Below are positions 6,060 through 11,044 of a DNA stretch of 32,000 bases, piece by piece. The notes under the pieces were generated by a model. That model did not search any database and was not told the origin of the DNA. It was given only the letters and a program-made list of their open reading frames with translations. Within the stretch, counting starts at the first letter, position 1; each line of letters begins with the position of its first letter. Made by a program: the position numbers and the translations under genes. Origin of the DNA: Sinorhizobium meliloti (GTDB lineage: Bacteria > Pseudomonadota > Alphaproteobacteria > Rhizobiales > Rhizobiaceae); assembly GCF_017876815.1 (NCBI RefSeq), contig NZ_JAGIOS010000001.1, positions 3,600,001 through 3,632,000 of the forward strand, given 5' to 3'.

Positions 6060-6893
6060 ATGGAAGCTTCCCGCGACATTCAACGCCTGCTCGACATCAT
6101 GGCCGCGCTCCGCGATCCGGAGACGGGCTGCCCCTGGGATATCGTGCAGACCTTCGAGACGATCCGGCCTTATACGATCGAAGAGGCCTATGAGGTCGCC
6201 GACGCGATCGAGCGTCATGATATGGACGACCTGTGCGACGAACTCGGCGACCTTTTGCTGCAGGTGGTCTTCCACGCACGCATGGCCGAGGAGGCCGGCG
6301 CGTTTTCCTTCGGTGACGTCGTCGAAGCCATCACGCGCAAGATGATCCGCCGCCATCCGCATGTCTTCGCCCGCTCCGACGCCGACACCGCCGAGGCGGT
6401 GAAGCTGCAATGGGAAGAGATCAAGCAGGCCGAGAAGGCCGACCGGCGGCAACGGCGCCTGCAGCGCGGCGTGTCGCAAGAGGAGCATGCTGGCCATCTC
6501 GGCTCGATCCAACGCAGCTTCCCGGCGCTGGTCGAGGCGCTGAAGCTGCAGGAACGGGCGGCAAAGGTCGGCTTCGACTGGTCCGAGCCTGAGCCGATCC
6601 TCGACAAGGTCGAGGAGGAAATCGGCGAGCTGCGGCAGGCACTTAAAGACGGTGACCTCGGGAAGGTCGCGGACGAGCTCGGCGACCTGATCTTCGCGCT
6701 CGTCAATATCGGCCGCCATGTCGGCACCGATCCGGAAATGGCGCTGCGCGGCACCAATACCAAGTTCCGGCGCCGCTTCGGCCACATCGAGAAGGAACTG
6801 GAAGCCGGAGGCGAAACGCTCGATGCGGCGTCGCTGGAGCGCATGGAAGAACTCTGGCAGGCGGCGAAGGCTATCGAAAGGCAGCTGACGTAG
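6060..6893 (+). CDS. mazG: nucleoside triphosphate pyrophosphohydrolase MazG (tandem MazG domains)
   Basis: 277 aa. Motifs: GCPWD, EEAYEVADAIE in domain 1, EEIGELRQA...ELGDLIFALVN in domain 2. Confidence 0.9.
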   Translation: MEASRDIQRLLDIMAALRDPETGCPWDIVQTFETIRPYTIEEAYEVADAIERHDMDDLCDELGDLLLQVVFHARMAEEAGAFSFGDVVEAITRKMIRRHPHVFARSDADTAEAVKLQWEEIKQAEKADRRQRRLQRGVSQEEHAGHLGSIQRSFPALVEALKLQERAAKVGFDWSEPEPILDKVEEEIGELRQALKDGDLGKVADELGDLIFALVNIGRHVGTDPEMALRGTNTKFRRRFGHIEKELEAGGETLDAASLERMEELWQAAKAIERQLT

Positions 6894-6920: not shown

Positions 6921-8071
6921 CTATTCCTCATCCCTGCCCGTCAAGGAATCCAGCCGGGCGGAATCCTTGGGCTGAAAAGACTCACCCGCGCCGCAGACGC
7001 GGCGCTGCTGGATCCCTGTGACGAGCACAGGGATGAGGGTGGAACGGGTGAGGTCCCTCGGAATACTTCTCATAGGCCGTGGGAAATTAAGGAGATGGCG
7101 CGCACGTCCTTCGAGCGAAGATTGCCGTAGCGCCCGTGCATCCCCGCCTCCCTCATTCCTGTGCCTGTCACAGGAATCCAGCCAGGCCAAGTCATTGGGC
7201 TGGAAAGACTCTTCCGCGCCGCAGACGCGGCGCTGCTGGATCCCTGTGACGAGCACAGGGATGAGGGGAGAGAGGGTCCCGATCCCTCGGAATAGTTCTC
7301 ATAGGTGCGCGGATATCGAGGAGATGGCGCGCAGTCCCCAAACGAGGTTGCGGCAGCGCCCGTGCATCCCCGCCTCCCTCATTCCTGTACCTGTCACAGG
7401 AATCCAGCCAGACCAAGTCCTTGGGCTGGAAAGACTCTTCCGCGCCGCAGACGCGGCGCTGCTCTCATCCCTGTGACGAGCACAGGGATGAGGGTGGAGC
7501 GGGTGCGGTCCTTCGGAATACTTCTCGTAGGCCGTGGGATATTAATGAGATGGCGCGCATGTCCTTCGGGCGAAGGTTACCGTAACGCCCGTGCATCCCC
7601 GCCTCCTCATTCCCGTGCTCGTCACAGGGATGAGGGGAGAGAGGGTCCCGGTCCCTCGGAATAGTTCTCATAGGTGCGCGGATATCGAGGAGATGGCGCG
7701 CAGTCCCCAAACGAGGTTGCGGGAGCGCCCGTGCTTCCCCGCCTCCCTCATTCCTGTGCTCGTCACAGGAATCCAGCCAGACCAAGTCCTTGGGCTGAAA
7801 AGACTCACCCGCGCCGCAGACGCGGCGCTGCTCTCATCCCTGTGACGAGCACAGGGATGAGGGGAGAGAGGGTCCGGTCCCTCGGAATACTTCTCATAGG
7901 CCGTGCGGAAGGAGATGGCGCGCAGTCCCCAAACGAGGTTGCGGCAGCGCCCGTGCATCCCCGCCCCCCTCATTCCTGTGCTCGTCACAGGAATCCAGCC
8001 AGACCAAGTCCTTGGGCTGGAAAGACTCAGCCGCGCCGCAGACGCAGCGCTGCTCTCATCCCTGTGACGAG
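6921..8071. repeat. BIME-like intergenic mosaic repeat array, left part (modules Y0-X1-Y1-X2-Y2-X3-X4-Y4-X5-Y5)
   Basis: Hairpin P1 atccctgtg-ACGAG-cacagggat at 7002, 7240, 7467, 7836 and 8058 (split by the IS). Hairpin P2 attcctgtg-CTCGT-cacaggaat at 7155, 7381, 7749 and 7972. Hybrid hairpin at 7608. X-module blocks cctcggaata.ttctcatagg, gagatggcgcgca and gcccgtgcatccccgcctccctc recur at about 7025, 7263, 7490, 7633 and 7861. Unit periods are 238, 227 and 222 bp. Confidence 0.9.
8067..8071. repeat. target-site duplication ACGAG (left copy)
   Basis: ACGAG lies immediately outside IRL and is identical to 9337-9341. It equals the loop of hairpin P1. Confidence 0.85.
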
Positions 8072-9336
8072 TGTTTAGCCCGGGGACATAACTGACGGGT
8101 GTTCGGGGAGATGGCTGACACGTCATACTGGCATGGATTTGGCTTCGAAGGGGGTATTCCATGCCGTGGCGAGAGGTATCGACGATGGGAGAGCGGCGGG
8201 AGTTTGTGCGACTTGCGCTTGAGGAGGGTGTGAACCGGCGGGAATTGTGCCGGCGGTTCGGGATCAGCCCGGATATCGGTTATAAATGGCTGGCGCGGTG
8301 GGAAGCCGGCGACCGCGAGTTGGCGGATCGCTCACGGCGCCCGCATATAAGTCCGATGCGTTGCAACGAAGCGGTAGAGACCGAGGTGCTTGGGGTGCGC
8401 GATGCGCATCCGGCATGGGGGGCGCGCAAAATTGTGGGCTATCTGGAACGGCAGGGAACCCACCCGCCGGCGGTTTCGACCGTTCATGCCATCCTCAAGC
8501 GCCATGATCGGATCGTAGCACCGCCGGGCGGCGCGCCGGCGTTGCAGCGCTTCGAGAAGGAGGCGCCGAACCAGCTCTGGCAAATGGATTTCAAGGGCTG
8601 GGTGCAATTGGCCGACGCCACGCTCTGCCACCCGTTGACGGTGATCGATGACCATTCCCGCTTCGTGCCTTGTCTCATGGCCTGCGCCGATCAGCGAGGC
8701 GCGACCGTACGCGGCCATCTGGAGCGGACATTCCGGCGCTACGGGCTGCCGGACGCCATGTTCGTGGATAATGGCGCGCCATGGGGCGATCCGTCAGGCG
8801 AGGGCTGGACCGGCCTCGGCGTATGGCTTCTGAAGCTCGGCGTCGCCCTACTGCACAGTCGCCCCTACCATCCGCAGAGCCGTGGCAAGAATGAACGCTT
8901 CCATCGCACACTCAAGGCCGAGGTGTTCGCCTTTGACCGTTTCAGGGATCTTGCTGCCGTTCAGCGCGCCTTCGATGCCTGGCGCGAGCTTTACAATTTC
9001 GAGCGCCCGCATGGGGCACTCGATCATGACGTGCCGGCCAGCCGCTACCACCCCAGTCCGCGCGCCATGCCGGATCGCCTGCCCGAGCCCGTCTATGACG
9101 AGGGCGAGATCGTGCGCAAGGTTTCCGCCACCAAAGCCTATGTCAGCTTCAAAGGCCGGCTATGGAAAGTTCCCAAAGCTTTCTGCGGAGAACGCCTCGC
9201 CATCCGCCCGCTCGACCGCGACGGCCACTATGGCGCTTTCTTCGGTGCCCATCACATCGCAACAATCAACTTGACCAACAAGCAATCCGTCAGTGATGTA
9301 TCCGAACAGGTGTCCGCCATGTCCCCGGGCTAAACA
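8072..9336 (+). mobile_element. IS481-family insertion sequence (1265 bp, single DDE transposase ORF)
   Basis: Perfect 18-bp terminal inverted repeats tgtttagcccggggacat (8072-8089) and atgtccccgggctaaaca (9319-9336) with TGT ends. The single transposase ORF has its stop codon (9331-9333) inside IRR. The element is flanked by a 5-bp direct repeat. Confidence 0.85.
8161..9333 (+). CDS. IS481-family DDE transposase (N-terminal HTH plus rve integrase core)
   Basis: 390 aa. HTH-like RRELCRRFGISPDIGYKWLARW. Catalytic-region motifs WQMDFKG, VIDDHSR, FVDNGAPW and HPQSRGKNERFHRTLK. An alternative start exists at M9 (8185). Confidence 0.85.
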   Translation: MPWREVSTMGERREFVRLALEEGVNRRELCRRFGISPDIGYKWLARWEAGDRELADRSRRPHISPMRCNEAVETEVLGVRDAHPAWGARKIVGYLERQGTHPPAVSTVHAILKRHDRIVAPPGGAPALQRFEKEAPNQLWQMDFKGWVQLADATLCHPLTVIDDHSRFVPCLMACADQRGATVRGHLERTFRRYGLPDAMFVDNGAPWGDPSGEGWTGLGVWLLKLGVALLHSRPYHPQSRGKNERFHRTLKAEVFAFDRFRDLAAVQRAFDAWRELYNFERPHGALDHDVPASRYHPSPRAMPDRLPEPVYDEGEIVRKVSATKAYVSFKGRLWKVPKAFCGERLAIRPLDRDGHYGAFFGAHHIATINLTNKQSVSDVSEQVSAMSPG

Positions 9337-9341
9337 ACGAG
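9337..9341. repeat. target-site duplication ACGAG (right copy)
   Basis: Lies immediately outside IRR. It is followed by cacagggatgagg, the right arm of the split P1 hairpin. Confidence 0.85.
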
Positions 9342-9640
9342 CACAGGGATGAGGGGAGAGAGGGTCCCGGTCCCTCGGAATACTTCTCATGGGCCGTGCG
9401 GAAGGAGATGGCGCGCAGTCCCCAAACGAGGTTGCGGGAGCGCCCGTGCATCCCCGCCTCCCTCATTCCTGTGCTCGTCACAGGAATCCAGCCAGACCAA
9501 GTCAGTGGGCTGGAAAGACTCTCCCGCGCCGCAGACGCAGCGCTGCTCTCATCCCTGTGACGAGCACAGGGATGAGGGTGGAGAGGGTGCGGTCCACTCT
9601 TATAACCTGTGCGGAAAGTCAGGAAATGGCGCAACACTCC
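9337..9640. repeat. BIME-like mosaic repeat array, right part (X6-Y6-truncated X7)
   Basis: Continues the same modules: X6 from about 9351, P2 at 9465-9487, Y6, P1 at 9551-9573, then a diverged, truncated Xa-type module ending a few nt before the hflX stop (9647). Confidence 0.85.
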
Positions 9641-9646
9641 TGGCTG

Positions 9647-11044
9647 CTACCAATCCTCTTCGACGGCCTTCGGGCCGTTGCCCAGCCGCCTCTCGAGCTC
9701 CGTGGCCTCTCCCTCCGTCAGACGCAGGTCAAGGCTCACGCGTCCATCCTCGAGGTCTTCGCGGCCATCGACGATCGCATGCTGGTAGACCCAAGGCAGC
9801 AACTGCAGCTGATCGAGACCCAGAACGACGGTGCACTCGGTCATGACGCCCGAAAGACGCCGGCCTATTTCAGTGAGAAGATCGTCGACACCTTCGCCGG
9901 TCATGGCCGAAACGGCGACCGTGTTGTCGGCGCTCGCGGCCTTCTTCACCAGCGCTTCGCGCACTTCCGGCTCGACCTTGTCGATCTTGTTCCAGACCTC
10001 GACAATGCGCTCGGCACCCTCCTTCTCGTCGATGCCGAGATCGGCCAGGATGCGCAGCACGTCGCTTGCCTGGGCCTGATTGTCCGGATCGGACAGGTCG
10101 CGCACATGCAGAACCAGGTCGGCCTCGAGTACCTCTTCCAGCGTCGCCCGGAAGGCGGCGACCAGATGCGTCGGCAGATCGGAAATGAAGCCGACGGTGT
10201 CGGAGAGGATGACCATACGCCCATGCGGCAGTTTCAGCCGCCTCAGCGTCGGATCCAGCGTCGCGAAGAGCATGTCTTCGGCGAGCACGCCGGCCCCGGT
10301 CATCCGGTTGAAGAGCGTCGATTTGCCCGCGTTCGTATAGCCTACGAGCGCGACGATCGGATGCGGCACCTTCTTGCGCTTCGACCGGTGAAGCTGGCGC
10401 GTGCGCCGCACCTGCTCCAACTCGCGCTCCAGCTTGACGATCCTGTCCTGCAGCAGCCGGCGGTCGGCCTCGATCTGCGTTTCGCCGGGCCCGCCCATGA
10501 AACCCGCGCCGCCACGCTGCCGTTCGAGGTGCGTCCAGCTGCGAACCAGGCGGCCCTTCTGATAATTGAGATGTGCGAGATCGACCTGCAGCGTGCCCTC
10601 CCTGGTGGAGGCACGCCGGCCGAAGATTTCCAGAATGAGGCCGGTGCGGTCGATGACCTTGGCGTTCCATTCCTTCTCGAGATTGCGCTGCTGGACAGGC
10701 GTCAGCGGGTGATCGACGATCACGAGCCCCGCATCCTTCTCGCTCAGGACGTGACCGATCTCCTCGATCTTGCCGGTGCCGAGCAGCGTGCCCGGTTTTG
10801 GCTGGGCGACGGAAACGATCATGCCGTGAACGACGTCCAGGTCGATGGCGAGCGCCAGGCCCGTCGCCTCCTCCAGCCGGCTTTCGTCCGAACGCGTAGC
10901 GGGCTGCGCAACGATGTCGGCAGAAGCCTTCCCGGTCTTTTTCAGGATCGGAACGACGACGACGGCACGCGAATCATCGCGGAGCCTCTCGAGCTCCGGA
11001 ATGATCGACGACGATTTTGAATCACGCTTGGTAATGTTCCTCAC
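9647..11044 (-). CDS. hflX: GTPase HflX
   Basis: G motifs GYTNAGKSTLFN, DTVGF and NKID, plus the HflX N-terminal domain. The ORF starts at GTG 11044, 6 nt after the hfq stop. No in-frame ATG occurs for about 70 codons, so the exact start is uncertain. Confidence 0.85.
   Translation of the reverse strand: MRNITKRDSKSSSIIPELERLRDDSRAVVVVPILKKTGKASADIVAQPATRSDESRLEEATGLALAIDLDVVHGMIVSVAQPKPGTLLGTGKIEEIGHVLSEKDAGLVIVDHPLTPVQQRNLEKEWNAKVIDRTGLILEIFGRRASTREGTLQVDLAHLNYQKGRLVRSWTHLERQRGGAGFMGGPGETQIEADRRLLQDRIVKLERELEQVRRTRQLHRSKRKKVPHPIVALVGYTNAGKSTLFNRMTGAGVLAEDMLFATLDPTLRRLKLPHGRMVILSDTVGFISDLPTHLVAAFRATLEEVLEADLVLHVRDLSDPDNQAQASDVLRILADLGIDEKEGAERIVEVWNKIDKVEPEVREALVKKAASADNTVAVSAMTGEGVDDLLTEIGRRLSGVMTECTVVLGLDQLQLLPWVYQHAIVDGREDLEDGRVSLDLRLTEGEATELERRLGNGPKAVEEDW

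Follow-up and report, generated by a model that had tools for sequence, protein, structure and literature searches.

ISRm20 of Sinorhizobium meliloti and its IS481-family relatives insert at the centre of REP palindromes

The stretch of DNA considered here, hereafter the window, comprises 32,000 nucleotides of the chromosome of Sinorhizobium meliloti (NCBI RefSeq assembly GCF_017876815.1, contig NZ_JAGIOS010000001.1, positions 3,600,001 to 3,632,000) and carries at 8072-9336 the insertion sequence (IS) ISRm20, a 1265-bp member of the IS481 family. ISRm20 sits exactly in the loop of a repetitive extragenic palindromic (REP) hairpin, and this position is not due to chance but reflects an inherited target choice: chance is excluded by the other copies of the element, by empty sites, and by its relatives in other hosts. 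From comparison of the sequences, we propose, with a probability of about 0.6, that the clade of IS481-family elements to which ISRm20 belongs targets the dyad of CGTC-tagged REPs, which would be read as duplex DNA by a two-fold-symmetric complex. REP targeting as such is a known behaviour, while the IS481 family, the REP superfamily involved, and the breadth of the association appear to be unreported.

In the window, the 5' arm of the palindrome, ctcatccctgtg (8055-8066), pairs over 12 bp with the 3' arm, cacagggatgag (9342-9353), and the target-site duplication ACGAG stands once on the left (8067-8071) and once on the right (9337-9341) of the element. The order of the flanks is thus ctcatccctgtg-ACGAG, IS, ACGAG-cacagggatgag, and the duplication is exactly the 5-nt loop, which confirms to the base what an initial annotation of this DNA had read from the letters. 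Taking out the IS together with one ACGAG restores a hairpin of 12-bp stem and 5-nt loop with a DNA folding energy of -15.9 kcal/mol (z = -6.5), identical to the unoccupied hairpins at 7465-7491, 7834-7860, and 9549-9575. Here the initial annotation stood in part: the hairpin is indeed intact again, but the restored junction, which it had equated with that at 7834-7880, differs from it by one extra C.

All other ISRm20 sites that we found occupy an identical position in hairpins of this type, the sole exception being a 133-bp fragment in S. fredii (L093) that does not lie in a REP. Their duplications read either ACGAG/CTCGT or CTTGT/ACAAG. For instance, CTCGT flanks the copy in the Ak57 chromosome (L001) as well as a copy at a second pSymB site common to HM006 and AK21 (L003 = L004), and CTTGT flanks the copy on KH46 pSymB (L002), at a site that is occupied by a truncated copy (L094) in CCMM B554. 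Most S. meliloti strains, 1021 included, possess on pSymB only such a truncated ISRm20 (~350 bp, identity 92-99%). The two truncated copies with flanks read, from 1021 (L090, pSymB 72730-73879, ACAAG) and from CCMM B554, lie at different sites, and in both the left flank is the REP loop; a further truncated copy, in ml21 (L091), likewise shows ACAAG. Furthermore, the position in the REP hairpin is kept by relatives of 82% DNA identity in Sinorhizobium sp. K101 and S. meliloti LMB1 (L005, L092).

Empty sites point the same way. The comparison was made at two pSymB sites rather than at the window locus, which is unsuited to it because the corresponding array of Ak57 (the only other S. meliloti chromosome covered, mislabelled as a plasmid in its record), between mazG and hflX (L086 950-2150), has a different number of units and contains an additional gene for a GIY-YIG nuclease. 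The orthologous unoccupied sites on pSymB of 1021 (against AK21) and of S35m (against KH46) hold an intact hairpin with exactly one copy of the loop, and filled and empty alleles differ at both sites by the IS and 5 bp only. The check proposed in the initial annotation, whether further copies and empty sites reconstruct the hairpin, thereby gave a positive result, the S. fredii fragment apart. Since the empty sites hold the complete hairpin, the arms are the target and do not belong to the element. That the arms might instead form part of the mobile DNA, as longer inverted repeats, could be supposed from the flanks being inverted repeats of one another, into which an automatic inverted-repeat finder extends; however, many hairpin copies are unoccupied, and the arms vary between hosts while the IS ends remain constant, so that we reject this explanation as exceedingly improbable. 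In addition, the duplication matches the loop allele of the respective empty site, CTTGT at one and CTCGT at the other, which indicates transposition rather than recombinational spread between repeats, and, on one side at least, homology between ISRm20 sites extends no further than 9-14 bp.

This choice of target extends far beyond S. meliloti. A scan with the transposase as query, of one genome per species (GTDB), yielded 80 loci of 57-73% identity, none of them from S. meliloti; their hosts include Bradyrhizobium, Caulobacter, Ensifer sp. R-19, Tagaea, Inquilinus, Rhizomicrobium, Terripilifer, and Pseudovibrio, and many hits came from uncultured Alphaproteobacteria. Element ends were located by searching for the end consensus; the automatic inverted-repeat finder, which picked internal repeats or REP arms, was dropped. 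With the Sinorhizobium copies counted, both flanks were available for 53 elements (57-100% transposase identity), and a site was scored as a hairpin if at least 7 of 9 positions paired between the arms around a 5-nt centre. A perfect 5-bp duplication between such arms was present in 31 elements, and 14 others had paired arms with unequal flanking 5-mers, so that the arms paired in 45 of 53, against 0.18 expected from a background of 0.34% of positions in the same loci. In four more, inserted centrally in a Bradyrhizobium repeat, the duplication is 4 bp (three GCAG/CTGC, one GCAT), which brings the REP-targeting elements to 49/53. The remaining four (L013, L060, L063, L084), like the L093 fragment, are exceptions and do not lie in a hairpin by this measure: L084 has a perfect duplication, CCTAT, within a weak hairpin with a 5-bp stem, and L060 has a perfect duplication, CCAGG, beside a single REP-like arm. 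Such exceptions could make the minimal target visible. Relative to the REP, insertion occurs in both orientations (17 vs 10).

A separate scan of metagenomes, with the 18-nt end as query, gave 94 distinct outward flanks. Defined strictly as 5 nt, 7 nt, AT, and then CC or GA, a REP half-site was found in 59 of these, compared with a background of 0.8%, and a further 10 conform if the centre is taken as 4 nt. Clustering of the metagenome copies at 97% and 90% identity produced almost no clusters in which stem types within a lineage could be compared.

Could the pattern arise without any targeting, by random landing and subsequent survival in harmless intergenic repeats, or by spread through homologous recombination? 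The window site is indeed neutral, lying between convergent genes, and some copies (L053, L056, L058, L151, L169) have recombinant flanks. Among the 14 elements with unequal 5-mers, some differ by point changes and three are exactly inverted, as in CTTGT followed by the IS and then ACAAG; the five loci just named show inverted flanking 5-mers, with REP head halves on both sides in L053 and L058, as recombination between two oppositely oriented IS copies would give by inversion. Nevertheless, selection cannot produce a single-nucleotide register, and the agreement of both duplication copies with the local loop allele as well as the short reach of homology between sites contradict recombinational spread. 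We therefore reject chance, selection alone, and recombinational spread, and hold an absence of targeting to be highly improbable.

The trait also has a phylogenetic limit. At 47-49% transposase identity, elements of Cupriavidus, Mesorhizobium, and an E. coli plasmid show duplications of 5-6 bp and no hairpin, whereas a fourth outgroup, 47.5% identical, on the plasmid BTHE68_p1 of Burkholderia sp. THE68 (L098, 423702-425623), occupies the centre of a palindrome whose arms measure ~35 nt, with no clear direct repeat; palindrome-centre insertion may thus occur outside the clade. A Neorhizobium element of 61% identity lies in a REP with a 4-nt centre. As three of the four outgroups are not in hairpins, REP targeting belongs to the ISRm20 clade, and that the trait follows the transposase clade suggests that REP specificity may reside in the transposase.

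The sequences so targeted correspond to the CGTC-tagged REPs. With their asymmetric ends used for orientation, the sites have the consensus (C/T)(G/C)TC-AT-nnCCGnG-CTYGW-CnCGGnn-AT-CCA, in which TC precedes the stem at 29 of 30 oriented sites and CG precedes that TC at 23 of 30, the S. meliloti sites being tagged CCTC, CGTC, ACTC, or TCTC. The 9-bp stem starting with AT and the 5-nt loop CTYGW fit the definition of CGTC REPs, namely a CGTC tag that is often TGTC or CCTC, a stem of 8-9 bp from AT, a loop of 4-5 nt, and a CCA tail (PMC3733652). The tail is present at most of our sites; the occupied hairpin of the window is a symmetric head-head variant (ctcat...atgag) without it. CGTC REPs are chiefly alphaproteobacterial, with S. 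meliloti and Bradyrhizobium among their hosts (Di Nocera et al. 2013, PMC3733652), and in 65 kb of S. meliloti DNA we counted 24 REP hairpin copies. Our targets match the repeats of Di Nocera et al. 2013, but the systematic association with an IS481 clade is absent from that work, where CGTC repeats are described as lacking association with transposase genes save for "a few fortuitous associations" (PMC3733652).

How might such a target be recognized? Strand transfer takes place at both stem-loop boundaries with a stagger of 5 bp, a precision conserved over a deep clade. Once the gaps are repaired, the loop stands duplicated on either side of the IS, and each IS end keeps one half of the palindrome. 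We propose that the target would be double-stranded and that the transposase-end complex would read conserved bases of both arms and of the loop, that is, a core CYGNG-CTYGW-CNCRG together with the AT pairs at the base of the stem, for which an extruded hairpin would not be needed. A symmetric duplex target explains the same loop-exact geometry.

The initial annotation had taken the position in the loop to imply structure-guided recognition, in which an extruded cruciform or a single-strand hairpin is recognized and the stem-loop junctions are cut whatever the sequence of the stem. Several observations agree with this: the duplication equals the loop across stems as unlike as ATCCCTGTG, ATTGCCGGG, ATCGCCCGG, ACCACCGGG, ATTCCCGCC, and ATGCCCGGG, lineages with a 4-nt centre have 4-bp duplications, as single-stranded DNA the target hairpins fold stably (-9 to -16 kcal/mol), and the Burkholderia outgroup also lies at the centre of a palindrome. 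Against it stands a Bradyrhizobium sub-lineage (L036, L042, L046-L052, L078) that inserts at a fixed central position of the weakly palindromic CGTCATTGCGAGCGCAGCGAAGCAATCC (= CGTCATTGCGAGC-GCAG-CGAAGCAATCC). Three complete elements show this insertion with the 4-bp duplication GCAG/CTGC, and 8 contig-end copies show it on the one flank that they have. With a 5-bp stem around a 12-nt centre, CGTCATTGCGAGCGCAGCGAAGCAATCC is no more stable when folded than shuffled sequence (-2.9 kcal/mol, z = +0.7); that so poor a hairpin is nevertheless entered at one fixed point counts for recognition of sequence over structure. In this sub-lineage, the length of the duplication has shifted from the 5 bp usual in the clade to 4 bp.

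Lineages are, furthermore, confined to one of several coexisting hairpin families. Each IS lineage, defined by at least 88% DNA identity, uses one stem family, and Bradyrhizobium harbours at least three lineages with different stem families while other REP types nearby are unoccupied. Similarly, the stems at ISRm20 sites are always of the ATCCCTGTG type and never of the ATTCCTGTG variant, although unoccupied hairpins in the 65 kb of S. meliloti DNA number 11 of the former and 9 of the latter, and the GCGCCGC-AGAC-GCGGCGC hairpins in the same array as the window copy are never occupied. Four loci (L011, L018, L024, L073) have one or two stem mismatches with their duplications intact. Finally, in DDE integration a stagger of 4-6 bp spans a single duplex, whereas in a cruciform with arms of 9-12 bp the two loops lie far apart. 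On this evidence we consider structure-guided recognition possible but doubtful, and the weakly folding repeat, the single stem family per lineage, and the unused ATTCCTGTG variant speak against the implication drawn in the initial annotation.

Alternatively, the IS might read a protein instead of DNA, if a REP-bound host protein recruited the transposase-end complex. Enterobacterial REPs are cited as binding gyrase, IHF, and DNA polymerase I (PMC1525189), and targeting is kept across hosts with different stem sequences, as tethering would allow. In contrast, the precision to a single nucleotide, in a register that is unchanged between distant hosts, and the lineage-specific choice among coexisting REP families argue against a host factor, as does the work of Wilde et al. 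2003, cited in PMC1525189, according to which the transposase itself sets the REP specificity of IS1397 and ISKpn1. Such tethering we regard as improbable.

If the transposase reads the duplex, its own ends may offer a hint as to how. Set in one register against a REP arm and its loop, the terminal 15 nt of the IS agree on average at 7.8 of 15 positions (loci L001-L085), whereas column permutation gives 5.95 +/- 0.49 and 2 of 1000 permutations reach 7.8. For example, TCCCCGGGCTGAACA and TCACCGGGCTTGACC match at 11 of 15 positions and, for ISRm20, TCCCCGGGCTAAACA and TCCCTGTGCTCGTCA at 10 of 15. The REP arm and loop resemble the inner part of the IS terminal repeat; more speculatively, this likeness may aid docking, in that the domain that binds the IS ends may also dock on REP arms. 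One might go further and suppose that the IS481 clade and the CGTC REPs co-evolved or have a common ancestry, as the shared T..CCGGGCT..AC could hint, and that the clade perhaps moves or amplifies REPs, for which no dedicated transposase was found (PMC3733652); this we consider rather unlikely.

A number of points weigh against recognition of the REP dyad as duplex DNA. The choice between duplex and hairpin rests on comparative inference from sequences, and the rule of one stem per lineage is partly confounded with the host because a lineage is mostly found in one host group, whose REPs may belong largely to a single family; coexisting REP families were counted in small numbers, and the contrast between ATCCCTGTG and ATTCCTGTG comes from 65 kb that were chosen for flanking IS copies. 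Nearly every lineage has a well-formed hairpin as its target and a duplication as long as the loop (5 or 4), which the structure model predicts as well, and the Burkholderia outgroup at the centre of a long palindrome is likewise unfavourable. As for the likeness of the ends to the REP arm, it is driven by a CCGGGCT core that is common to outgroup ends without REP targeting, and it is weak in the GCAG sub-lineage.

The ISRm20 copy of the window is apparently intact, with identical ends and copies of 99.9-100% identity in other strains. Those on pSymB of S. meliloti KH46, HM006, and AK21 are 100% identical in DNA and lie at other sites, and the name ISRm20 was taken from the Ak57 copy, 99.9% identical in DNA, which is annotated as "IS481-like element ISRm20 family transposase". 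The 18-bp terminal inverted repeat TGTTTAGCCCGGGGACAT occurs twice in the window, at 8072-8089 (plus strand) and, as a perfect match, at 9319-9336 (minus strand), where 0.02 occurrences are expected by chance; the right one contains the stop codon of the transposase, and the tips are TGT...ACA, as expected of the IS481 family. The transposase gene (8161-9333, plus strand) encodes 390 aa in one open reading frame (ORF) without a frameshift, with an N-terminal helix-turn-helix (HTH) and a DDE (rve) core. Pfam matches comprise rve (2.9e-11), rve_3 (3.6e-16), HTH_32 (3e-12), LZ_Tnp_IS481 (1.4e-6), and also HTH_28, and together with the single DDE ORF and the 18-bp ends they uphold the family assignment of the initial annotation. 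At the left end, two tandem 23-bp subterminal repeats (cccggggacataactgacgggtg / ttcggggagatggctgacacgtc) span 8079-8124 on the plus strand, and a matching pair at the right end spans 9284-9329 on the minus strand, with a consensus of approximately CGGGGACATnnCTGACnnGTG. Relatives, and even outgroups at 47% identity, show the same layout, and these repeats are probably multiple binding sites of the transposase.

Around the element, a mosaic repeat array with units of ~225 bp extends over 6935-9600, between the convergent genes mazG (which ends at 6893) and hflX (9647-11044, minus strand), so that no gene is interrupted by the insertion. Each unit comprises two REP hairpins and one GCGCCGC-AGAC-GCGGCGC hairpin and, with the IS subtracted, the array holds six ATCCCTGTG-N5-CACAGGGAT hairpins as well as four perfect ATTCCTGTG-N5-CACAGGAAT hairpins and one with a mismatch adjacent to the loop. 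Rfam had no match between positions 6500 and 10000 of the window. Two PLSDB records labelled as plasmids, CP090106.1 (3.72 Mb, pSymB) and NZ_CP104131.1 (3.52 Mb, pK101a), are evidently chromosomes; the former has annotated hfq, hflX, mazG, and uvrB, and the latter matches the mazG-hflX region.

To date, REP targeting has been described for the IS3 family (IS1397, ISKpn1, ISPsy8), the IS110 family (IS621, ISPa11, ISPpu9, ISPpu10, ISRm19), and the IS4 family (ISRm22, at the palindrome axis in S. meliloti, with 6-bp repeats), with looser REP associations in members of IS256 and IS5; these are five families in all, and IS481 is not among them (PMC1525189). For S. meliloti, the published cases are ISRm22 (IS4), ISRm19 (IS110), and ISRm5 (PMC1525189). 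ISRm20 is absent from that article, in which the text match is ISRm2011, and in the literature we searched, which did not extend to ISfinder and TnPedia, where matches to the name were ISRm2011-2, there is no report of ISRm20 targeting or of a link between IS481 and REPs, in agreement with the initial annotation, whose author knew of none for this family in rhizobia. By its sites, its relatives, and the metagenome flanks, ISRm20 fits the functional class of REP-targeting ISs (type 1 of Tobes and Pareja 2006), in that the joined flanks minus one duplication copy form a canonical REP that exists unoccupied elsewhere.

The closest behavioural counterparts, IS1397 and ISKpn1 of E. coli and Klebsiella, are likewise DDE elements that insert centrally or in the loop of REPs, or palindromic units, with a short duplication (PMC1525189). 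They possess two overlapping ORFs (orfA, orfB) joined by a -1 frameshift, whereas ISRm20 has a single uninterrupted ORF and is thus no member of the IS3 family even if it acts like IS1397; the REP superfamily and the hosts differ as well. The duplication made by IS1397 and ISKpn1 is 3-4 bp. In the IS110 family, targets are chosen by a guide ("bridge") RNA. Every copy of ISRm19, ISPpu9, ISPpu10, ISPa11, and IS621 occupies one fixed REP position, as with ISRm20, but these elements encode DEDD recombinases and ISPpu9 and ISPpu10 show direct repeats of 2 bp (PMC1525189), in contrast to the classical DDE transposase and 5-bp duplication of ISRm20. ISRm22 of S. meliloti 1021 resembles ISRm20 in that all its copies lie in REPs, at the palindrome axis (PMC1525189), yet its transposase is unrelated (Transposase_11) and its duplication is 6 bp instead of 5 bp.

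With IS481 of Bordetella and typical members of its own family, ISRm20 shares the TGT...ACA ends, the single transposase with HTH and DDE core, and a short target-site duplication, which for ISRm20 is 5 bp in the empty-site alignments. IS481 itself prefers a short palindromic target (NCTAGN). Family-wide, duplications range from 2 to 15 bp and are mostly 6 bp, according to the ISfinder figures quoted in PMC10045372. The ISRm20 clade differs from typical members by its duplication of 5 bp (4 bp in one sub-lineage) and by its need for a REP of ~30 bp around it, which relatives at 47-49% identity mostly do not share. Distantly related to IS481/IS3 transposases, the ISAba32 subgroup of the IS1202 family has duplications of 5-6 bp and has acquired a specific, partly palindromic XerCD target (bioRxiv 10.1101/2022.12.17.520857); it inserts 5 bp beside the recombinase site, whereas ISRm20 inserts at the REP dyad.

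For genome annotation, the preference described here explains why these elements are located in repeat arrays and why contigs frequently break there, and for genome rearrangement it is relevant that several copies have flanks exchanged by recombination between IS copies. For the question of how classical DDE transposases find REPs, the dozens of related elements in many alphaproteobacterial hosts provide a natural series, in which each is inserted at the dyad of the REP variant that its host carries, all from one superfamily; together with the non-targeting relatives of ~48% identity, this series makes recognition of sequence versus structure directly testable. The CGTC REPs are now linked to a specific transposase clade, which bears on the persistence of these repeats.

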